A model generated the notes under the pieces. That model was given only the letters and a program-made list of their open reading frames with translations, searched no databases and was not told the DNA's origin. Below, one piece after another: positions 20,883 to 32,548 of a stretch of 64,000 nucleotides of DNA (position 1 is its first letter; every line of letters starts with the position of its first letter). The translations under genes and the position numbers were made by a program. The stretch covers positions 590,790 through 654,789 of the forward strand of contig CP064998.1 in the NCBI GenBank assembly GCA_016700035.1, written 5' to 3'. This DNA comes from a bacterium. Lineage in GTDB: Bacteria > Patescibacteriota > Saccharimonadia > CAILAD01 > GCA-016700035.

Positions 20883-23009
20883 CTACTTCGCTACAGCCTT
20901 TGCTTGACACCACAGTATATAGCAATGCACCGAAGTTTTAATTGCAGTTGGCACACCCAAACTACCGTCAGACTGCTCCGGCACCACCGCTAGGGTATAT
21001 TCTGCCGAATGTATAGCCGGCAAAGCAATCCGATTAAATCCACCAAATTTAATAGAGCGCCTTAACCCATCAACCACTGCAAGCTGTCGTTCAAGCTTAT
21101 TGGTTTTATTATCACGGCCATAAATATGAAACTTAGCTGCACCACCGGGAGCTTGCCAGCGTAAATCTACCAGCCAACCACCTTGGAGTAAATCAAGCTT
21201 AGTCTGAGCAGTTACCTGCGTCACAGTACCATTCGCTACCGCTGCTTTATCTGAACCCTGGGCCACCACAAAGGCGTCTTGAGTATAAGTATTAGCACAA
21301 GGGTCACCTCCAGATTGTGATTGGGTGGCTGCATTCTGCTTATATTGAGCGACAAATTTGCGGGCTTCCACTGGATCATAACCAAAGGAACGGATCTGAT
21401 CATCTGTCACCTTATCAAAATCAAACTGCAATAACGATATACCAAGCACCCCTTCAATCGCAGCTATTTGACTAGCTCCATCGGCCGACCCCATACGGCA
21501 AGTAATTGTTTCGGTATTACCAATAGTTGCTGAGCTACCAGCCTGCATACGCAATTGTGCTACATAGCGTCGCACTTGGGCCGGATCATAACCAAAGGAA
21601 CGAATCTGGTCATCGGTCACCTTTGACCAATCAATTTCCCAGATTGACATCCCCAGCAGTCGCTCTATTTCATCAATTGGAATTGGCGCGGAACCAATCC
21701 CACCCGAACCAATTCCACCTCCCTTTGGAATACCCGACGGAACATCAACGGCGGGAGTTTGCGAGCCCATATTAAGATTGCCAGTCGGTATACTGATTGG
21801 TAACCATGAGGATGACGGTAATGCTACTCGTGCCGACAATAGCTGAGTATTATTAAGCTCTAAAGAAAAAGCAAAGCGCTGACCGACACCTTGCGATCCA
21901 GCCACCACACCATCAAAGTAGATGCTCTCACCAGATGGATCAAACCGAATACGCGCAGGCGAGGTCTGCAATGGTAGATATTCAAACTGAGCATTACTTT
22001 GAAATTGTCGGCTGGCAACCTGAAAGGCATAGAGTCGATTAGGATTCTGTGCACAGCCAGAGCCAGTTGGACAACCAGTGCCTACCATAATAATCTCTCC
22101 AGCCGGATTAGCATCAAAACTCGTAGCCGTACTGCCCACCGGATAGCTATCAATCTGCCCCTGGCTAGAGACCGCCACCAAACTAGACTGACCACCGGCT
22201 TGACCAAGTGTAAAAACAGTATTACCAATTTGACGCAGATTCAGACCATCAATACCCGATTGCTTAGGATACGTAACGGTACCTTTGCCCAACCTCTCGC
22301 GACCCCCATTAGCTGGATTAATGCGGTCGATGGTTCCGTCAGAATATGCCACCATCACACTGCCAAATGCCGACCCAAACCTAGTTGCCATACCATCCAG
22401 TGCTACCTTGTGTCTCACCCCACCATCAAGAGAATAAACCCAAACTTCCGTACCAACCGAATTTAATATGGCATAGCTAGAATTATCAACCATACGGACA
22501 GCCTGTACCCCATCACTTGGCCCATCGACGTATCGGTCAAACCGCATTGTTGCCAAATTAAACCGTGCCACTGCCATACCAGCATTGAGCCGACCACCCT
22601 GACATGGCTTTAGTCCGGCCAGTGCAAAGCCTCGGCTAACGTCAATCACCATGTCGTACATATAGGGCTTGGGCTGAGTTGGCGAACAGCCATTCAGGAT
22701 AGGTAAATTTGGAGCGGTTAATACACCTAATTTATTGCCATCGATAGGGTTAACGGCAATGAGAGAATTATGAAATCCACCCGCCTCATCGCCAATTACC
22801 ACTAACGTATTAACCTGCCCAGCACTAGCAAAGGTAGCTAAAACTGCGATCGTCCCAACCAGTACAAGTCCAATACCTAAAACTAGGGCAAGCTTTTTTT
22901 TAGGTCGATAACTGCCCTGTAAGTGACTGCTACCAATGTTGCGCTTAAAATGCTTAGCTATCCGAACCACCGACCCAGCAAAGCCCCAATGGCAACAATA
23001 AATTGCCAC
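20883..23009 (-). CDS. Large N-terminally anchored surface protein with a beta-propeller-like region and two internal repeats (..KVTDDQIRSFGYDP..R.FVAQ)
   Basis: ORF with TM near the N-terminus. The DWSKVTDDQIRSFGYDPAQVRRYVAQ / DFDKVTDDQIRSFGYDPVEARKFVAQ motif is repeated. Confidence 0.55.
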   Translation of the reverse strand: MAIYCCHWGFAGSVVRIAKHFKRNIGSSHLQGSYRPKKKLALVLGIGLVLVGTIAVLATFASAGQVNTLVVIGDEAGGFHNSLIAVNPIDGNKLGVLTAPNLPILNGCSPTQPKPYMYDMVIDVSRGFALAGLKPCQGGRLNAGMAVARFNLATMRFDRYVDGPSDGVQAVRMVDNSSYAILNSVGTEVWVYSLDGGVRHKVALDGMATRFGSAFGSVMVAYSDGTIDRINPANGGRERLGKGTVTYPKQSGIDGLNLRQIGNTVFTLGQAGGQSSLVAVSSQGQIDSYPVGSTATSFDANPAGEIIMVGTGCPTGSGCAQNPNRLYAFQVASRQFQSNAQFEYLPLQTSPARIRFDPSGESIYFDGVVAGSQGVGQRFAFSLELNNTQLLSARVALPSSSWLPISIPTGNLNMGSQTPAVDVPSGIPKGGGIGSGGIGSAPIPIDEIERLLGMSIWEIDWSKVTDDQIRSFGYDPAQVRRYVAQLRMQAGSSATIGNTETITCRMGSADGASQIAAIEGVLGISLLQFDFDKVTDDQIRSFGYDPVEARKFVAQYKQNAATQSQSGGDPCANTYTQDAFVVAQGSDKAAVANGTVTQVTAQTKLDLLQGGWLVDLRWQAPGGAAKFHIYGRDNKTNKLERQLAVVDGLRRSIKFGGFNRIALPAIHSAEYTLAVVPEQSDGSLGVPTAIKTSVHCYILWCQAKAVAK

Positions 23010-23335
23010 AACATAACAATCAACATCACTACCGAGCTAAATAGAATAATCAGTTTTTTTGCTGGGCTCAGTGCGCCAGCATACATAACCACTTGCTTAA
23101 ACTGAGCAAGAGCCAGCGGTATAAATACCACCGGCAAGAAAAGCCTTAACATCTGAGCCTCGGTAGTTGACTGTGGTTGGCACCAATTTTCAGCGTAGGC
23201 ACTACAGGCAATATCAGGAAATATTTTACCAATCAACCACAACAGCACTAGCTGAGCCATAAAAATAACTACCAGCCTTAAAAAACTTTTTCCAAGTGAT
23301 GTCGTCTTGGTTTTAGGGGAATTTGATGACTCCAT
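22958..23335 (-). CDS. Hypothetical membrane protein (4 TM)
   Basis: ORF downstream of uvrA. Overlaps the annotated start of the next gene. Confidence 0.4.
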   Translation of the reverse strand: MESSNSPKTKTTSLGKSFLRLVVIFMAQLVLLWLIGKIFPDIACSAYAENWCQPQSTTEAQMLRLFLPVVFIPLALAQFKQVVMYAGALSPAKKLIILFSSVVMLIVMLWQFIVAIGALLGRWFG

Positions 23336-23377: not shown

Positions 23378-26191
23378 CTATGTGAGAATGCGCTTAAGAT
23401 AGCGTCCAGTATGGCTCGCCGCAACTTTTGCGATAGCCTCTGGTGTCCCTTCGGCAATAATTGTACCGCCACCCGATCCACCTTCTGGCCCCAGATCAAT
23501 CACCCAATCGGCCGACTTAATAATATCTAGGTTATGCTCAATTATCAGCACACTGTTGCCCTTTTCCACCAGCTGATGCAAAACTTCCAGTAAGCGCTTA
23601 ACATCTTCAAAATGCAACCCGGTTGTTGGTTCATCCAAAATATAGAGGGTTTTACCCGTTGCTCGCCTGGACAGTTCAGAAGCTAACTTAATACGCTGAG
23701 CTTCACCGCCCGAAAGTGTGGTGGCAGGCTGACCCAAATGAATATAGCCTAAGCCCACATCATTGAGCGTGCCAAGCTTACGCTCGATAGTTGGGATATT
23801 AGCGAAGAATTCAGTTGCCTCTTCAACCGTCATCTCCAACACATCGGCAATCGTCTTATCCTTATAGGTAACCTCCAGAGCTTCACGATTATAGCGCTTA
23901 CCATTACAAGTCTCGCAAGTAACATAGACATCGGGTAAGAAATGCATTTCAATTTTTATGATACCGTCGCCCCTACAAGTCTCACAGCGCCCACCCTTAA
24001 CATTAAAACTAAACCGGCCGGCCGCATAACCTCGAATCTTAGCCTCGGGTACCTGAGCAAACAGGTCTCGAATATCGGTAAAAGCACCCGTGTAGGTAGC
24101 TGGGTTAGAGCGCGGAGTACGCCCAATCGGGCTTTGATCAATATCAATCACCTTATCAAGATTATCCGTCCCTTCAATCCGTGAATGTTTACCGGCCGGT
24201 TCTTGCGAGCGATGATATTCCTGACTGAGCTTACGCGCTAGAATATCATTTACTAAACTTGACTTGCCAGATCCTGAAACCCCCGAAACTACCGTCATAT
24301 TACCGAGCGGAATTTCGATATCAATATTTTTAAGATTATTTTCTGTCGCTCCAACAATCTTGAGTGATTTACCGTTGCCCTTGCGTCTTTTCGTTGGCAC
24401 CGCTATCTGCTTTGCACCCGACAAATATTGGCCTGTTATTGAATTCGAAACTTTAGCAACTTCATCTGGTGTGCCAGCTGCCACCACTTCCCCACCATGC
24501 ACTCCAGCGGCCGGACCAATATCTACCACATAATCAGAGGCCCGGATTGTATCCTCATCATGCTCTACTACAATTACTGTATTGCCGAGATTTTTGAGTC
24601 GCTGTAGGGTTTCGATTAAGCGATCATTATCGCGTTGATGCAAACCAATCGAAGGCTCATCTAAAATATATAACACCCCCATTAGTGAACTACCAATCTG
24701 AGTAGCTAGTCGAATTCGCTGGGCTTCACCGCCGGCCAGGGTATTAGCCGAACGATCAAGTGTGAGATAGCTCAAACCTACATCATTTAAGAAAGTTAGA
24801 CGTTCAGAAATCTCCTTAAGTATCTGCTTGGCGATCTTCGTATCGGTGGCATTCAAAGTTAAGCTGGTGAAATACTGCAAAGCTTTTTCAACCGACATTT
24901 CCACCACATCCGCAATCGACTTATCATTGATGGTAATTGCTAAAACTTCCGGCTTGAGGCGCTTACCCCGACAAACCGGACAGGTCATATGAGTCATGTA
25001 GCGCTCAATCTCTCCCTTCACAAAATCACTCTCACTCTCACGATAGCGTCGCTCCAGATTTGGGATCACCCCCTCAAAAGTTGTGGAATATGATCGTCCA
25101 CCCGGCCCTGGTACTTTAATGATTTCTTCTCCAGTTCCGTAGAGTACATTCATTAACTGTTCATGCGTCAGGCTCATAATTGGCTCGTCTAACGAAAAGT
25201 TATGGATCTGTGCCACGGCTTCCATCAGCTTGGTATACCAAGTCATCCGGCTTGTAGTGCGACTCCACGGCCGAATTGCCCCCTCATTAATACTCAGACG
25301 TTGATTTGGGATCACCAGTTCAGAATCCACCACGCGTAAAGAACCTAGACCGGTACAATTTGGACAAGCCCCGTGTGGAGCGTTAAAAGAAAACAAGCGC
25401 GGTTCAATTTCTGAGAGTGAAAAGCCAGAATTAGTGGTAGCGTAATGCTCGGAATAAACCTGCTCATTGTCAGTTTCATGTTCCTGCACAATAAGTACCC
25501 CTTCACCTAGCTTTAGAGCTTGCTCCACAGCTTCAGCCAGTCTCTGATGACTATCGGCATCTACCACCAAGCGATCTACTATCACTTCAACGGTATGCTT
25601 TTTTTGCTTTTCTAGCTCGATCACTTCATCGAGATCTACCACATCACCATCAATGCGAGCTCGCAAATAACCAGCCCTCTGTAATTCTGCTAGAACATGC
25701 CGATGTTCACCTTTTTTGCCTTTTATGACTGGTGCTAAAATAACTATTCGAGTACCCTGTGGGTGAGCTTCAATAGATTCAATAATCTGAGCCGAGGTTT
25801 GCTTAGTTAGTACTTCGCCGGTTTTTGGATCGTGCGGAATACCTATACGAGCAAATAAAAGTCGTAAGTAATCATAAATTTCAGTTACCGTAGCCACTGT
25901 TGATCGCGGGTTGCGACTAGTCGACTTTTGGTCAATCGAAATAGCTGGCGAAAGTCCTTCAATCTGATCTACATCCGGCTTCTCCATGAGCCCCAAGAAC
26001 TGCCTAGCATAAGCCGATAACGACTCCACATAGCGGCGCTGACCTTCGGCATAAATAGTATCAAAAGCTAGCGACGATTTACCGGAACCAGAAAGTCCAG
26101 TAATTGTGACCAACTTATCGCGCGGAATTTCGAGGTTAATATTTTTTAGATTATGCTCGCGAGCACCGCGAATAATCAATTTATCGTGCAT
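23378..26191 (-). CDS. uvrA: Excinuclease ABC subunit A (UvrA)
   Basis: Two ABC ATPase modules ([14 protein letters not shown] / [14 protein letters not shown]), LSGGEAQR signatures, zinc-finger CxxC pairs; 937 aa. Confidence 0.95.
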
Positions 26192-26360
26192 CTTGCCTCT
26201 TTCCTTTCGGGTAAAAATAGCCTGTAAGAATCTACCAAACTAGGGGCAGATTATACGCTGATTAGAGCAGTTTTTCAAGCCTCACATGCAGTACAATATT
26301 TTGCTATCCATAACCACTTTCGGGTATAATATTGCATAACTAATTTGGAGTAATACGTTT

Positions 26361-27071
26361 ATGCCGCCAGTTGGAACCACCCCCGACGCCAAACCATCCC
26401 TACCGCAAATCCCATCTGCTGGAGATACCAATGCTAAGGGTGAAGCTTATAAGCTGTTTAACGAGGCCAATGTAGCGCCTATTGCACCAGCTAATGTAAT
26501 GCCTCAGCCAGCTCCAGCGTTTGGCGAACAACCAGCACCGACTCCAACTGAACAGGCAACCCCCAAAGAAGAAGCCATCCCAACCGATGTTATGCCAGCT
26601 GAGCCAGGCGCCATAAAAGTGCCAGTTGCTACCACACCCAGTCCAACCCCCGTCGAAGCTACTCCGGACCCAATGACTGCTTTCGTACCAAAACCCTTAG
26701 AGACTAATATTACTCCGCCAGCTCCAGCAACAGCCCCACCGAGCCCAGCTGCTCCACCTAATTATCCAACGCCAGACTGGAACGCCATGGAAAGCTCCGC
26801 CAAGGCTGGCGCCGTACCCACCAACCCAAACTCTGAAGCACCGACTCCAGTAGCCTACGATGAACTAGAGCAATCTAAGCTTGATGCCGAAGTTGTTGGA
26901 GATCCAGAAATGCAAAAGTTTTATGAGTATGTAACCGATGACCCAAATGCAATGATTGCAATTCTACAGGGCGCCATGAAGGAAGATAGTGCTGAAAAAA
27001 GAAGTGAGAAGCTTAGAGCAATTTGGCCAACAATCAGCAAATGGGCTGCCAAAAACATTATTCCACGCTAA
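26361..27071 (+). CDS. Pro/Ala/Thr-rich low-complexity protein with a small C-terminal helical domain
   Basis: ORF, no signal peptide. A bidirectional terminator follows. Confidence 0.45.
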   Translation: MPPVGTTPDAKPSLPQIPSAGDTNAKGEAYKLFNEANVAPIAPANVMPQPAPAFGEQPAPTPTEQATPKEEAIPTDVMPAEPGAIKVPVATTPSPTPVEATPDPMTAFVPKPLETNITPPAPATAPPSPAAPPNYPTPDWNAMESSAKAGAVPTNPNSEAPTPVAYDELEQSKLDAEVVGDPEMQKFYEYVTDDPNAMIAILQGAMKEDSAEKRSEKLRAIWPTISKWAAKNIIPR

Positions 27072-27082
27072 CTAAAACTATT

Positions 27083-27120
27083 CTTTACCTAAAAAACCAC
27101 CTCTTAAATAGGTGGTTTTT
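27083..27120. terminator. Bidirectional rho-independent terminator
   Basis: aaaaaaccacctcttaaataggtggtttttt. Confidence 0.8.
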
Positions 27121-27142
27121 TAGGTCTTACGCTCGAGTTTAA

Positions 27143-28408
27143 TCAAGCAGCTTTTTTAAGAATATCCTGAATAACTCGTTCAGCATCTTCTAGCCTGCGG
27201 CGCTGCTCTGCAGAGAGCTGAATAATATCACCGGTATTTTCAGATGTTACTTCTGCCGTCTCGTTCACGGCCTTCTCAACTAGATTCTCTGAATTCTCTG
27301 GCGTAACATACTCTGCCTGATTAATACGGACATCTGAAACATCTGCTCCGCCAGCTACAGGTGGTTCTATTTCTTTATTATCACTATCAGCTTCAGCTAC
27401 AGGTGACCCTACTGCTTCTTTCAATTCTGTCGCTGAATCTATTTTGACCACCTCCGATTCTACATCTGGCTTTAGTTCTGGGAATGGCGTATCTTCTACT
27501 GTCGGTGCTGCCTCAGATTTATTACCGTCAGCTTCAATACCGTCGGCTTGCCCTAGACCCTCTATCTTCTCCTCTGTAGAATTAGCTTTTTCTTCTGGAT
27601 AGGTTGGATCCGAGTCCACTTTGCTATTCGTAGCGTCAGCAGCTGGCAGTGTTTTATTAATTTCAGCTTCAATGGCCGCCGCCTCATCAACTGCACTGGC
27701 CTCTAATTTGGCTGCAAAATCATCTGGCTTTTCTGGATTAACTAAAGCTTCGGACTCTGATGCTGCTAACTCCGATGACAACTCTGGCGAAGCTGGCGAC
27801 GTGCTTGTATCAACCGCACTACTCGATGTATCAACCTCAACCCCGGAACCATCAACCGCATCCTTTTTTTGCCATTGCTCTAACTGACCAAGCTCCGAGT
27901 TAGGCTCCTGAGATTCTGTATTATCCACTACAACTGTCTCTGACGAGGTATTTATTGCGGCTGATTCATTGGATGGTACCGCATCAACTTTAACTGCCGT
28001 AGAAAACTCACCAGGTGAAACGGGCTCAGGTGAACTATCCTCCGTATTGTCCTCGGTAGTCTCTTCAGCGGCCTCCGGTGCACTAACAGTATCTTGACCC
28101 ACATCACTTGCCTCAACCGGCGCGCTAATTTCACTCTCCGCCAACCCTTCTTGGCCTCCTGCTGACTCAGACTTTGCCTCTACCGGACTAACCGTAGCGC
28201 CCGACAGATCAACTGTTGCAGGACCCGCCCCAGCCATATCCATATGAGCCGGCGCAACCTCTCCACCTTCAACTGAGTTATGCTCACCCGTAGTATCCTT
28301 TATAGCAACCGCACCATCTTGGCCTTCTGCACCCTGCGCAACTGCAGGAGCCACAGCCTCTGGAGCCTCTGGCCCATGCGAGTGTAATAGTTCTCCAAAA
28401 AATCCCAT
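27143..28408 (-). CDS. Highly acidic, low-complexity (E/S/A/T/D/V-rich) protein without a signal peptide
   Basis: ORF, last gene of the uvrB-led transcription unit. Compositionally DNA-mimic-like, which is speculative. Confidence 0.5.
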   Translation of the reverse strand: MGFFGELLHSHGPEAPEAVAPAVAQGAEGQDGAVAIKDTTGEHNSVEGGEVAPAHMDMAGAGPATVDLSGATVSPVEAKSESAGGQEGLAESEISAPVEASDVGQDTVSAPEAAEETTEDNTEDSSPEPVSPGEFSTAVKVDAVPSNESAAINTSSETVVVDNTESQEPNSELGQLEQWQKKDAVDGSGVEVDTSSSAVDTSTSPASPELSSELAASESEALVNPEKPDDFAAKLEASAVDEAAAIEAEINKTLPAADATNSKVDSDPTYPEEKANSTEEKIEGLGQADGIEADGNKSEAAPTVEDTPFPELKPDVESEVVKIDSATELKEAVGSPVAEADSDNKEIEPPVAGGADVSDVRINQAEYVTPENSENLVEKAVNETAEVTSENTGDIIQLSAEQRRRLEDAERVIQDILKKAA

Positions 28409-28469
28409 AAAACTTTAACCCTCTTTTGCTTATTTTGTAGTTAGTATAACACAAAATATTTTTCTTATG

Positions 28470-29120
28470 CTAGCTTCGCGCACCACGCTGAGCTAACTCA
28501 AATTGTGTAATTGTCGCAACCGTCTGTTGCTCCAAATTTCGGGCAGCGTTGCCATATTGCGTTCTTGTTAGCCCTTCAAAAATCCTCTGTAATGTGCGGA
28601 GAGACTCAATCACTTTGGCTGCTGATATCTGAGCCGCTTTAGCCCCTTCTTCTCCGCCTGTTTGCTCAGCAACCCGCAAGCTGACAATTGCTGTTTCAAG
28701 TGACTGTGACACCACAGGTAGCTGATCAAGTCCTGGAATTTGATGTACATCTGGCCCAATAGCCATATTCATCAATGTGCGCATGTCATTATTATTCTGG
28801 ATATTGCGAATAGTATCAGCCGAATTGGCCAATTCGCGCATACTAGACAATATTTCACGCGACCGAGCAGCTGGCTCTCGGTTCGCTGGCATTCCTTTTT
28901 GTTCACCCGATACTGCAGATGTATTTTGATCGGCAGTCGATGGGGCTGTAGATTCTGATGCGTCAGGTTGAGTGCGCACCTCTAAGGCCTTTCGATCATT
29001 TGTTTCGGCTGCAATTTGTCGCAACGCATTAGTCGTCTCAACCGTTTTTGATGACAAGCCTTGATGCTGCTCGCCACTCATCGACCCACGAAACGCTTCT
29101 GTATTCCCAAATGTCGACAT
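28470..29120 (-). CDS. Hypothetical protein
   Basis: ORF in the same orientation between the acidic protein and the 424-aa protein. Confidence 0.45.
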   Translation of the reverse strand: MSTFGNTEAFRGSMSGEQHQGLSSKTVETTNALRQIAAETNDRKALEVRTQPDASESTAPSTADQNTSAVSGEQKGMPANREPAARSREILSSMRELANSADTIRNIQNNNDMRTLMNMAIGPDVHQIPGLDQLPVVSQSLETAIVSLRVAEQTGGEEGAKAAQISAAKVIESLRTLQRIFEGLTRTQYGNAARNLEQQTVATITQFELAQRGARS

Positions 29121-29169
29121 CTTAGGCTACATTATAGCACTTATGGTGTAGGTACGTCGACCAAGACCG

Positions 29170-30444
29170 CTACCTATCACCCGCTCTGTATTTCCCGTCG
29201 CGCGGATACTCAACGTTTGGCTGGCCGTAGAGATCGGTAAATATATCTTTTGTAGACATAATATGCGAGCCGCCGTAGGCTATAAAGACTTTCTTACCGC
29301 GTGCAACTTGGGCAGCCACAGCGGTCGAGAGTTCGCGATCCCTAATTGCACCCTGTTCAGCCCAAAACTTACCCAACTGACTCTCGTCGTGGGGATCAGC
29401 GCTCAGCTCGAAAAGCATCAGTGGCGGTATAAATTTCAGCTCACCGTTCAATGTATCAACCTCCAGACGAGACGGGATTTGCATCGACTCGAGCCAGGCA
29501 TTCATCTGCGCAATTGCCGGTTCGAGCTTCGTCAAGATGTCTTGTCGGATCATAAGAAAATCACTTTGAGCTTCAGGAATGTCTTGCGTGAAATACTTTT
29601 TATCATCCTCGCTAAATAGCGGATACTTATCGGATAATCCCACAGCAGCGAGCTGCGGATAAATGTCTAAGAGAACATCACCAACAGGCTGCTTTGCTTC
29701 TTCTGAGTTTCCTGAACCGCCGAAGCTGTATTCTGGCCGTGCCTGCAAAGCCCGCAAAGCAAATGCAAGTGCTGTTACTTCACGCGCAAGCCCTTGGTTC
29801 TCAAACTCAGCTGCTGTAATTTCATTGATATTCAATGGCTCACCCGGCACCGCCTCGACCCCCATCTGGCGGGCAAGAAATTGTAAGCCTCCAGATTCGG
29901 TCCGTTTTTGTACTGCCTCGCTCCAACTACCTGATTCATCGGGATAACCCTCATAAATCAAAACTACGTTTTCTACTCCCTGCCCCATAACAAACTGTCG
30001 AAATTGCTCGGCAATGTAGCGATTATTGAAAGAGTCCGGAGCGTAGTCATGTCCATCAGCCCACTTACCCTCCATCAGGCCATAACGAGTAACATCTTTA
30101 GCCGGCTTGCCAGTACGTGGCTCAAATTTCTCTGAATTCACCGACGCAATTACCTTCAGACTACCGTCAAGATACGTGTCGGTCTCCATACCGCCATGCG
30201 TTAACCGTTCGGCTTGATGCCTGTCATATCCTTCACCATAACTTGCGTATTTGCCCCAAACTTTCTGCACTCGTTCTCGTGGCTCCAATTGATTTACCTC
30301 CCCTTCGATAGCTTGTCCACCCACACTACTTACAGCCTCAAGCTGCCTACCTTCAATAATTTTTTGTAAGTCATCCGCAACCTGAGCCTGATGACTCCCA
30401 GATTCTGATTGTTGCTGATTAGCGCTTGTCTCTGGTGTTGTCAT
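29170..30444 (-). CDS. Hypothetical protein with a possible TraB/GumN/ChaN-like C-terminal motif (VFIAYGGSHI); start 3 nt after the uvrB stop
   Basis: Tightly coupled to uvrB. The acidic N-terminal region is disordered. Family assignment is weak. Confidence 0.5.
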   Translation of the reverse strand: MTTPETSANQQQSESGSHQAQVADDLQKIIEGRQLEAVSSVGGQAIEGEVNQLEPRERVQKVWGKYASYGEGYDRHQAERLTHGGMETDTYLDGSLKVIASVNSEKFEPRTGKPAKDVTRYGLMEGKWADGHDYAPDSFNNRYIAEQFRQFVMGQGVENVVLIYEGYPDESGSWSEAVQKRTESGGLQFLARQMGVEAVPGEPLNINEITAAEFENQGLAREVTALAFALRALQARPEYSFGGSGNSEEAKQPVGDVLLDIYPQLAAVGLSDKYPLFSEDDKKYFTQDIPEAQSDFLMIRQDILTKLEPAIAQMNAWLESMQIPSRLEVDTLNGELKFIPPLMLFELSADPHDESQLGKFWAEQGAIRDRELSTAVAAQVARGKKVFIAYGGSHIMSTKDIFTDLYGQPNVEYPRDGKYRAGDR

Positions 30445-30447
30445 ATA

Positions 30448-32436
30448 TTATTTCCTTTTTATCTCCCGACCAGCCTGAAAATCACGTATTTCAGCAATCT
30501 GATCACGCAACTCAGCTGCTTTTTCAAATTGTAAATTGGCAGCCGCCAGCTCCATCTGTTCATTTAATTGACGTACTAAGTGCTTGAGCTCATCTTTCGG
30601 AATTTTTGCAAGATCCAGAACTTGTACATCTGCCACTTCAGCCTCGCGCTCTTCCGCTATCCGCTCCGCAATGGCCTTTTTAATTCCCTGCGGGGTTATG
30701 CCATGCGTATCATTGTAGGCCAGCTGTTTTTCGCGCCGACGGTTGGTTTCTTCAATTGCCACCTGCATCGAGCCGGTCACCCGATCGGCATACATAATAA
30801 CTTTTCCTTCCACATGGCGAGCTGCCCGACCAATCGTCTGGATTAAGCTAGATGTAGATCGCAAAAAACCTTCTTTATCAGCATCAATAATTGCCACCAA
30901 AGATACCTCAGGTAAATCCAACCCTTCGCGTAATAAGTTAATCCCCACCAAAACGTCATACACACCTAGCCGTAAATCACGCAGAATATCGGTCCGCTCC
31001 AATGTGTGCACTTCCGAATGCAAGTACTGCACTTTTATACCAATATCCATCAAATATTCCGTTAAATCTTCAGCCATCCGCTTCGTCAGAGTAGTCACCA
31101 GAGTGCGTTGACCTTTTTTAACCCGCTCGCGTACCTCACCTATCAAGTCATCCACCTGGTGTTCAACTGGACGCACTTCTATCTCTGGATCCAGCAGTCC
31201 AGTTGGTCGAATAATCTGCTCGGCCACATGCGATGAACGCGATAGCTCATAATCGGCTGGTGTGGCCGAAACATACACCACCTGATTGATGTGTCGATCA
31301 AACTCTGTAAAAGTTAATGGCCGATTATCCAGCGCACTCGGTAAACGAAAACCATGCTCCACCAGCACCTCTTTACGCGCCCGATCACCGTTAAACATAC
31401 CGCGTACCTGCGGCACAGTAATGTGACTCTCATCAATCATCATTAGAAAATCATCCGGAAAATAATCTAGTAAGGTTGCCGGTTGCTCACCCGGCTCGCG
31501 GTTGGTCAAATATCTTGAATAATTTTCAATTCCCTTCACATAGCCAGTTTGCTCTAAAATTTCTAGATCATACTTCACGCGCTGTTCAATGCGCTGAGCC
31601 TCCAAATGCATATCCTGTGACTTATACCAAGCCACGCGCTCGGTCGACTCCTCGTGAATTCGCTCCATGGCCTTTTGGATCTGCTCCTTTGGTGCCACAT
31701 AATGTTTAGCTGGAAAAATTGTCACTTCAGTGGGGCGGCCAACCACCTCACCCGTGAGGGGTGTCAACTTAGTAATCGACTCCACCACATCACCAAAAAA
31801 CTGAATTCGATAAGCCTCTTCCCCATCGGCTGGAATTATATCAATATTTTCTCCTCTTACCCGAAAAGTTCCACGCTGAAAGTTTTGGTCATTACGCGCA
31901 TATTGAATGTCGGTTAAGAGACGCAAGAATTTATCTCGCTTTTTCATCTCGCCCACTTTTATGGCAATCGACATATTAGCAAAGTCTTCCACCGAACCAA
32001 TGCCATAAATACAGCTCACCGACGCCACAATTAAAACATCCTGACGAGAAAGCAGGGCCGAAGTGGCCGCTAGACGCAAACGATCAATCTCTTCATTGAT
32101 GGCTGAGTCTTTTTCAATGTAGGTATCCGAGCGAGCTATGTAGGCTTCTGGCTGATAGTAGTCAAAATAGCTCACAAAATAATGTACAGCATTATCTGGA
32201 AAGAACTCTTTAAACTCCGAATACAGTTGAGCTGCCAATGTTTTGTTGTGGGAAAGAACCAAGGTTGGGCGATTTATTTTGGCGACCAAATTCGCCATGG
32301 TAAATGTCTTACCGGAACCAGTCACACCCAAAAGAGTTTGCTCTCGTGCCCCATCGCGTAAGCCTGCATATAGTTTCTCTATCGCACCTGGCTGATCACC
32401 AGATGGCTCATATTTCGCCCGTAAGTTAAATGCCAT
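30448..32436 (-). CDS. uvrB: Excinuclease ABC subunit B (UvrB)
   Basis: Helicase motifs ([12 protein letters not shown]), the beta-hairpin region, C-terminal UVR domain ([10 protein letters not shown]); 662 aa. Confidence 0.95.
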
Positions 32437-32548
32437 AACCTACATTATATATGAAAAATATGACCACCCGGCATGGGATAGCCATACTAATCATCGTCAT
32501 TAATACCTATACTTAATAATAACTGATTGGTGTAATAATATTACAATC

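Follow-up and report, generated by a model that had tools for sequence, protein, structure and literature searches.

The repair genes uvrB and uvrA of Saccharibacteria enclose a slot whose gene content varies between genomes, and here we describe the four genes that occupy it in one such bacterium, together with the protein family to which the first of them belongs. The host genome is a single contig of 916 kb (NCBI GenBank assembly GCA_016700035.1, contig CP064998.1) and the window that was analysed is a stretch of 64,000 nucleotides (nt) from it, extending over positions 590,790 to 654,789 of the forward strand. Coordinates given without a prefix are those of the window.

In the list of open reading frames (ORFs), the unit starts with uvrB (30448-32436, minus strand), which encodes 662 amino acids (aa), and it continues on the same strand with genes for an enzyme-like globular protein of 424 aa (p424; 29170-30444), a helical protein of 216 aa (p216; 28470-29120) and an acidic low-complexity protein of 421 aa (p421; 27143-28408). 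A bidirectional intrinsic terminator, common to the convergent genes, was located at 27087-27125 from its folding energies, and a gene for a Pro/Ala-rich protein of 236 aa (p236; 26361-27071) converges on it from the plus strand. Beyond lie a divergent promoter region serving uvrA and p236, identified in a promoter scan (26192-26360), and uvrA itself (23378-26191, minus strand; 937 aa), which constitutes the far border of the slot. The uvrB and uvrA genes show 72-93% and 71-94% identity, respectively, to those of relatives.

Much of this layout had been sketched in an earlier note, based on the letters of the window alone, and it holds in every detail. The uvrB stop codon TAA is followed by TAT and then by the ATG of p424, a spacer of 3 nt that can be read directly, and p216 and p421 are the next genes on the same strand. 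The terminator at the end of the unit, AAAAAACCACCT-loop-AGGTGGTTTTTT, has a 16-bp stem with A6 and T6 on its flanks and folding energies of -22.6 kcal/mol on one strand and -23.7 kcal/mol on the other (z-scores of -6.4 and -6.9), with none of 200 shuffled sequences being as stable. Impressions of unusual composition were borne out: no other ORF of 150 aa or more anywhere in the genome is as acidic as p421 (22.3% Asp and Glu, 5.7% Lys and Arg, pI 4.05), and the convergent p236 contains 18.6% Pro and 15.7% Ala. As anticipated, none of the four proteins carries a signal peptide; they lack hydrophobic stretches, with maximum Kyte-Doolittle means over 19 residues of at most 1.02, compared with 2.4-2.7 for anchored neighbours. 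Nor does any of them match a family at threshold in Pfam, NCBIfam, PADLOC or PHROGs, and no paralogues of the four genes were found within their own genome.

The description of the unit as a uvrB-led operon holds only in part. A scan behind uvrB revealed no terminator in the slot before position 27125, and p424 is strictly coupled to uvrB, but this strict coupling is limited to p424 because p216 has a candidate promoter of its own (TCGACG-18-TGnTATAAT, 29160-29131, 10 of 12 matches) and p421 has its own Shine-Dalgarno sequence together with a 61-nt spacer upstream.

Slot variability and a shared leader

The earlier note had staked its functional reading on the linkage to uvrB persisting in related genomes, and it does persist. 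A homologue of p424 was detected in 12 of 40 relatives from the same order (13 of 41 genomes including the host) and it lies directly after uvrB in 9 of the 12. In a scan of species-representative genomes, uvrB is immediately upstream of the family member in 15 of 23 loci, seven lack the linkage and the remaining one is truncated by the end of its contig. Where the linkage exists, uvrA is usually immediately downstream, giving the order uvrB-E-uvrA, where E denotes the enzyme. Moreover, the stop codon of uvrB and the start codon of the gene that follows overlap or adjoin each other in the window and in genomes G004, G005, G009, G010, G011, G028 and G033. From the conservation across species and the abutting start codons, it follows that the linkage is real and old. 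There is no strict co-occurrence of the two genes, however: no homologue of p424 was detectable in 28 of the 41 genomes of the order, and uvrB was present in 26 of the 27 that were checked.

Between its borders the slot is highly variable, as is evident when gene orders are written with E for the enzyme, H for the helical, A for the acidic and P for the Pro/Ala-rich protein, X for other proteins, and a slash for the switch to the convergent gene. The window and G009 carry E-H-A/P. Of two genomes from the same genus as the window, G005 has E fused to H, followed by A/P, and in G004 the enzyme body is deleted so that the leader (see below) is joined straight to H, again followed by A/P. The order is H-A/P in G001 and G010, H-X-A/P in G008 and E-X-A/P in G011, while a close relative represented by locus L039 carries two enzyme paralogues in tandem, in the order E1-E2H-A/P. 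Thus A and P are constant in all eight genomes of the family that were inspected and the enzyme is deleted, duplicated or fused; proteins other than the enzyme follow uvrB in G001, G010, G008 and G022. In other families of the order the arrangement is either uvrB-E-uvrA or uvrB and uvrA separated by an unrelated protein. In the tree of the enzyme family, the window's member is placed on a branch of 2.1 substitutions, outside the clade that its own family forms. The tandem paralogues of L039 explain this position, and they also suggest that p216 is an H tail that has been left without its enzyme.

The uvrB frame of G005 (L022 18-2627) is 869 aa long and carries an insertion of about 200 residues at the Walker-A region. 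The insertion contains LAGLIDADG-like blocks (LSGLFAGDGWIEKGS) and has the appearance of an intein that includes a homing endonuclease.

The proteins encoded next to uvrB nevertheless have one feature in common. Nearly all of them start with 15-30 polar residues, often M-S/N-E-P-T-P, followed by a helix of the type L-x-[DE]-[DE]-L-x-x-[IM]-A, such that the leader extends over about 35-45 residues and ends in an amphipathic helix. A 320-aa protein following uvrB in G028 matches a member of the enzyme family (P0006) exclusively over the leader stretch, where 13 of 18 residues are identical (E 4e-5), and the bodies of the two proteins are unrelated. Similarly, MSEPTP-type leaders head the non-homologous bodies of the enzyme's neighbours at loci L048, L061 and L063. 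For the enzyme itself, 14 of 15 uvrB-linked copies reach a leader score above 10, compared with 4 of 8 unlinked copies. The slot therefore displays the combination of a constant N-terminal module with unrelated C-terminal bodies that is characteristic of polymorphic toxins. Because the same leader heads unrelated bodies, we read it as a shared handling tag that may serve in targeting, tethering or turnover.

Some of the other slot proteins carry recognisable motifs. A leader-tagged protein at L063 (3486-4256) has a zincin-like HEVGH motif and a weak match to ATLF, an M34 zinc-protease family (PF07737, E 0.028), and a second one at L061 (4558-5676) has kinase-like motifs, seen by eye only. A leaderless slot protein at L059 (8160-8900) resembles HSDR_N/PD-(D/E)xK nucleases (Pfam E 2e-7). 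Elsewhere in the host genome and outside the window, three proteins show leader-like starts (C1:24554-25474, 351352-351768 and 303949-307050), with the helices LSKDLERIIAE, LRDQLKDAMEQ and LARELREIEQK, and one of them is a protein of 1033 aa with C-terminal membrane segments. Judging by these N-termini, they are possible further clients of the leader; Pfam yielded no informative family matches for them.

The p424 family and its candidate active site

Word-indexed searches with p424 and its alignment retrieved close relatives only, a comparison of the p424 profile with PDB sequences gave only noise, and no relatives were detected by sequence in viral contigs. An exhaustive HMMER search among 1.84 billion proteins yielded 32 representative clusters at E < 1e-3, and the 23 species-level loci are all titled Saccharibacteria, Saccharimonadia or Patescibacteria, or are metagenome-assembled genomes. 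On this sequence evidence, p424 founds a new small family that is restricted to the Saccharibacteria.

The protein consists of a polar leader, from residue 1 to about 45, with the helix VADDLQKII, and a folded body of residues ~50-418. Alignments of 23 and 28 family members, which are 20-35% identical, reveal ten invariant residues: Y66, Y73, H132, E165, G166, G185, R368, D369, G391 and H394. AlphaFold2 (AF2) models were obtained for p424, with a predicted local distance difference test score (pLDDT) of 86.8 and a predicted template modelling score (pTM) of 0.82, and for a compact member that is 20% identical to it (pLDDT 91.6, pTM 0.89). The two models agree on where the invariant residues sit: H132 comes after a strand and E165 at the end of the one that follows it, R368-D369 belong to a long helix, and G391-x-x-H394 comes after the final strand of the core.

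Compared with its close relative in L039, to which it is 85% identical, p424 shows a ratio of non-synonymous to synonymous substitution rates (dN/dS) of 0.19 and it must therefore be functional and under purifying selection. The synonymous rate between p424 (29170-30444) and the L039 gene (5046-6317) is mosaic: dS is 0.13 over residues 126-240 and rises to 1.2-1.4 over residues 241-424, which suggests recombination between strains inside the gene.

A faint TraB/GumN-like motif had been perceived near the C-terminus of p424 in the earlier note, and it recurs in our profile searches. The best sub-threshold Pfam matches are to ChaN (E 0.0023, with a score of 18.4 bits where 27.7 would be required) and to TraB/PrgY/GumN (E 0.0094-0.093), and such ChaN and TraB matches were obtained for four different family members, always in the C-terminal Arg...Gly-x-x-His region of the profiles and at the right profile positions. 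RRSP and erythromycin-esterase (Ere) enzymes carry a catalytic 2His/2Glu set, with E-x-H after the first strand, a Glu after the next strand and a late His, plus an Arg (PMC6254334). The spacing in p424 is H-33-E-229-H, with the Arg 26 residues ahead of the last His, and it resembles the 2His/Glu plus Arg arrangement of those enzymes (PMC6254334), as does the structural order, with a His after a strand, a Glu closing the strand behind it, a helical Arg and a final Gly-x-x-His after a strand. Furthermore, p424 shares with the Ere enzymes a long helical insertion between the Glu and the last His. When the two models were compared with PDB structures using Foldseek, EreC was ranked first for one and second for the other, with entries 6xcq and 6xcs appearing at ranks 1, 4 and 2, and a Marseillevirus 'TraB family protein' was among the matches in BFVD (E 0.52).

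There are also substantial arguments against this relationship. No significant sequence or profile similarity was found to PF01963, PF04187 or PF05139, and the EreC fold matches are not significant (E 0.38-0.59, with template modelling (TM) scores of 0.16-0.19). An hhalign comparison of the p424 family with a YbaP-type TraB alignment gave a probability of 0.3%, that alignment having little depth and consisting mostly of rows that share 65% identity or more, and no signal was obtained against Escherichia coli YbaP alone. In addition, the first Glu of the 2His/2Glu motif is unconserved in the family. Whereas H132, E165 and H394 are invariant together with R368 and D369, residue 130 can be D, S, N, A or L, and only a 2His/1Glu set is retained since the position two before H132 varies. 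The p424 fold also differs from TIKI proteins in having an additional N-terminal beta-meander, with the invariant Tyr66 and Tyr73, as well as the leader. Weighing these arguments, we lean, if modestly, towards placing the p424 family in the TIKI (TraB/ChaN/Ere) superfamily. Canonical TraB was found in a single one of 301 genomes of the phylum.

The only significant fold match for p424 was to uncharacterised giant-virus proteins in BFVD. The best of these, A0A3G4ZS86 of Edafosvirus, matches over the whole length (E 2e-6, probability 1.00, TM 0.53/0.59), and others derive from Hyperionvirus, Klosneuvirus, Terrestrivirus and Feldmannia virus. This is a comparison between two predicted structures, and the sequence identity to p424 is about 10%.

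Among the copies unlinked to uvrB, the one in G027 (L017 7908-9917) follows alaS and is extended at its C-terminus by about 290 residues. A kinase domain had been guessed for this extension but was dropped, as neither Pfam nor a sequence search of PDB supported it.

Companion proteins and signals of the locus

p216 is helical with a leader-like motif, ALRQIAAET, and alignment showed its homology to the tail that the fused enzymes of relatives carry at their C-terminus, such fusions occurring in G005 and L039. We read p216 as a helical partner of the enzyme, encoded by a separate gene here and as a C-terminal enzyme domain in the relatives.

An alignment of p421 with the acidic proteins of its family (eight members) shows a few short conserved islands, including the N-terminal motif MGFFGELLHSHG, which is of the type GFFSKIFGHH in relatives, and a conserved C-terminal helix. 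With its terminal Gly-Phe-Phe/Leu-x-basic-Leu/Ile-Phe-Gly and the long acidic low-complexity stretch behind it, this putative membrane-binding N-terminus looks comparable to the amphipathic sequences through which MinD and FtsY are targeted to the membrane. The FtsY protein of E. coli carries an acidic A-domain. Unlike those proteins, p421 has no NG GTPase or ATPase domain and ends in a short helix and Ala-Ala. We read p421 as a family-specific acidic, disordered protein, probably located at the inner face of the membrane by means of its amphipathic motif. In five of the eight genomes that were aligned, the acidic protein has Ala-Ala as its last two residues (as KAA, RAA or QAA; at 27143-27148 for p421), an ending that is reminiscent of ssrA-like C-terminal degradation tags.

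p236 is conserved at its start, MPPVG, and in a block towards its C-terminus, PTPDWEAM...YxxL..SKLDAE..., and its gene is convergent in all the family genomes inspected. We read it as a disordered Pro/Ala-rich protein that is peculiar to the family and whose C-terminal part forms a small conserved domain. Among the genomes inspected, p421 and p236 were seen only in the window's own family, where the p421 homologue occupies the same position in all eight, and nothing ties either of them to DNA.

These companions evolve rapidly compared with the border genes. Relative to G004, for which the synonymous sites are saturated and dN/dS cannot be derived, the dN values are 0.05 for uvrB and 0.04 for uvrA, and 0.46, 0.60 and 1.03 for P, A and H, respectively, such that the non-synonymous rate of p421 is approximately 11-15 times that of UvrB and UvrA. 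Within the genus, identities are 25% for H, 40% for A and 50% for P versus 93% for UvrB.

The promoter scan located the boxes TTGAAA-17-TATAAT (11 of 12 matches) on the uvrA side and TTGCTA-18-TATAAT (10 of 12) on the p236 side of the divergent region. Upstream of uvrB, the -10 box TATAAT (32449-32444) lies 7 nt ahead of the ATG, and the same arrangement, with 7 or 8 nt, recurs at uvrB of G004 and G010. Because of this short distance, the uvrB transcript looks leaderless. An identical sequence, TATAATGTAG, precedes both uvrB (32444-32449) and p216 (29131-29136, 10 nt before its ATG), which suggests that leaderless or near-leaderless transcripts may arise from two promoters of one type. Further upstream, between the stop codon of the preceding gene and the uvrB promoter, there is a perfect 15-bp palindrome, TGTAATAATATTACA (32531-32545), that constitutes the sole TGTA-[AT]7-TACA site in the 916-kb genome and could be an operator.

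The genome encodes lexA, and in the lexA promoter spacer (C1:833799-833813, outside the window) there is a direct repeat, GTTC-N7-GTTC, of the alphaproteobacterial SOS-box type, which occurs 15 times genome-wide on both strands together, a number not above chance. Neither this repeat nor a Cheo box (GAAC-N4-GTTC) was found near uvrB or uvrA, although the true LexA box of the lineage may differ. Between uvrA and uvrC (20883-23335) lie genes for a small membrane protein of 125 aa and an anchored protein of 708 aa, which occupy the same place across the genus with 73% and 65% identity. From their conserved position it follows that the uvrB...uvrA...uvrC cluster is interleaved with non-repair genes.

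Function of the slot

On balance, and with a little more than even confidence, we consider that the four genes are the cargo of a variable slot between uvrB and uvrA and form an accessory cassette whose leader-tagged proteins are expressed together with uvrB and do not supply parts of the excision-repair system. Saccharibacteria would maintain the slot and the four genes would be its current cargo. p424 would be an enzyme made in the cytoplasm, translated by coupling to uvrB and starting with its polar leader, and would most likely be a hydrolase distantly akin to the TIKI, TraB-PrgY-GumN, ChaN and erythromycin-esterase proteins. Its active site would be formed by the His-Glu-His set of H132, E165 and H394, aided by R368 and D369. 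The leader would act as a shared handling tag, p216 would be the helical partner of the enzyme and p421 would be held at the inner face of the membrane, with the cassette exploiting the expression of uvrB outside excision repair. Enzyme family and leader are both novel. The data show the anatomy of the locus, its conservation and variability, the purifying selection and the sharing of the leader, and what we infer is the hydrolase chemistry of p424, the handling role of the leader and the membrane tethering of p421.

Apart from the doubts about TIKI membership given above, some results count against this interpretation. A tight coupling to uvrB that is so widely conserved is left unexplained if the cargo is a pure hitch-hiker. 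The helix motif of the leader is no more than moderately specific by itself, ranking p424 11th and p216 52nd among 1050 ORFs, and the matrix behind the leader scores was partly trained on sequences later scored.

A more elaborate proposal, which we regard as doubtful, is that the uvrB-uvrA pair provides a dedicated expression dock for interchangeable leader-tagged enzymes. The leader would then constitute an undescribed address tag, directing its clients either to UvrB at sites of damage or towards the host for export.

A rival explanation is an exported effector kit, in which the leader is a non-Sec export signal and the enzymes, a TIKI-like hydrolase, a zincin-like and a kinase-like protein with constant N-terminus and variable C-terminal parts, are delivered to the actinobacterial host or to competitors. 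The slot resembles polymorphic toxin loci such as LXG, Rhs and CdiA in that one N-terminal module is carried by unrelated and swappable enzyme bodies and paralogues occur in tandem; it also shows domain deletion and fusion, rapid turnover with gain and loss of paralogues within the genus, and, from the mosaic dS of p424 (0.13 vs 1.4), signs of recombination. TIKI-fold domains occur in the bacterial effectors RRSP and HopBA1 (PMC6254334), and the epibiotic lifestyle of Saccharibacteria (PMC10633639) would suit such a kit. Nevertheless, the slot leader is only about 35-45 residues long, the slot proteins lack any hydrophobic signal, no secretion or immunity gene was found in the slot or its flanks, and PADLOC and Pfam are blank for the slot proteins. 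Selection on p424 is, overall, purifying and not diversifying, and the leader-like N-termini elsewhere in the genome are putative. Finally, an effector kit does not account for why the slot keeps its place between two housekeeping repair genes, with translational coupling to one of the two. We consider this explanation improbable.

Another rival is a repair accessory, in line with the DNA-damage-related role that the coupling had suggested in the earlier note. Here the leader would tether slot enzymes to UvrB, with co-translational assembly via the coupling, for action at damage sites, where for example a protease might trim DNA-protein crosslinks for excision by UvrABC and the acidic protein might modulate UvrA or UvrB. 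The start codons 3 nt past or overlapping the uvrB stop in many genomes and the position directly after uvrB in 15 of 23 species accord with this role, as do the tracking of leader presence with linkage and the protease-like bodies in the slot, both TIKI-like and HEVGH zincin-like. They are opposed, however, by the 28 of 41 genomes in which the enzyme was undetected, by its deletion within the genus (G004), by the seven of 23 species in which it lies elsewhere and by the mutually unrelated bodies that the slot can hold. Moreover, no LexA-box-like site was found near uvrB or uvrA, and in S. epibionticum the two genes are about 100 kb apart and both proved dispensable in transposon sequencing (PMC10633639 supplement). 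A repair accessory is, we consider, slightly less probable than an effector kit, and a repair role does not follow from the linkage.

The earlier note also raised the possibility that the acidic protein mimics DNA or regulates DNA-binding proteins, and this idea, with p421 as a mimic or decoy that controls those of the repair pathway, fares considerably worse. Known DNA mimics such as Ocr, ArdA, DMP19 and UGI are compact folds whose carboxylates copy the phosphate backbone. p421 shares with them a strong net negative charge, the highest in the genome, and is probably co-transcribed behind uvrB in that no terminator intervenes before 27125. However, p421 is a long low-complexity chain with short conserved islands and a C-terminal helix, and the GFFSKIFGHH motif looks like a candidate membrane-binding amphipathic helix. 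It is limited to one family of the order, other families having a uvrB-X-uvrA order without it, and its non-synonymous rate far exceeds that of its supposed partners UvrB and UvrA. We regard a DNA mimic as very improbable. Least credible of all is the idea that the genes are non-functional filler or mis-called frames in a decaying spacer, as might be imagined from the low identities of H, A and P between close relatives, given the low dN/dS of p424, the confident AF2 models of p424 and of a second family member, the residues that are invariant across a family only 20-30% identical, the retention by A and P of position, orientation, length and terminal motifs in eight genomes, and the intact ORFs in a streamlined genome.

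Saccharibacteria are obligate epibionts with genomes of less than 1 Mb and for this reason every gene that they retain is informative. The locus described here reveals an unannotated enzyme family for which sequence comparison provides a clear candidate for the active site, a short module at the N-terminus of unrelated enzymes that is a candidate targeting or tethering signal, and a hot spot of gene turnover inside the uvrB-uvrA pair that is translationally coupled to uvrB. If the pair does serve as an expression dock, it would represent a novel type of modular accessory locus, embedded in an operon for core repair functions. If the leader is an address tag, it would offer a handle on further client proteins in uncultured Patescibacteria and would help to explain how lineage-specific enzymes are deployed. 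If it is not a tag, the locus still provides a clean case of rapid cassette exchange in a streamlined genome.

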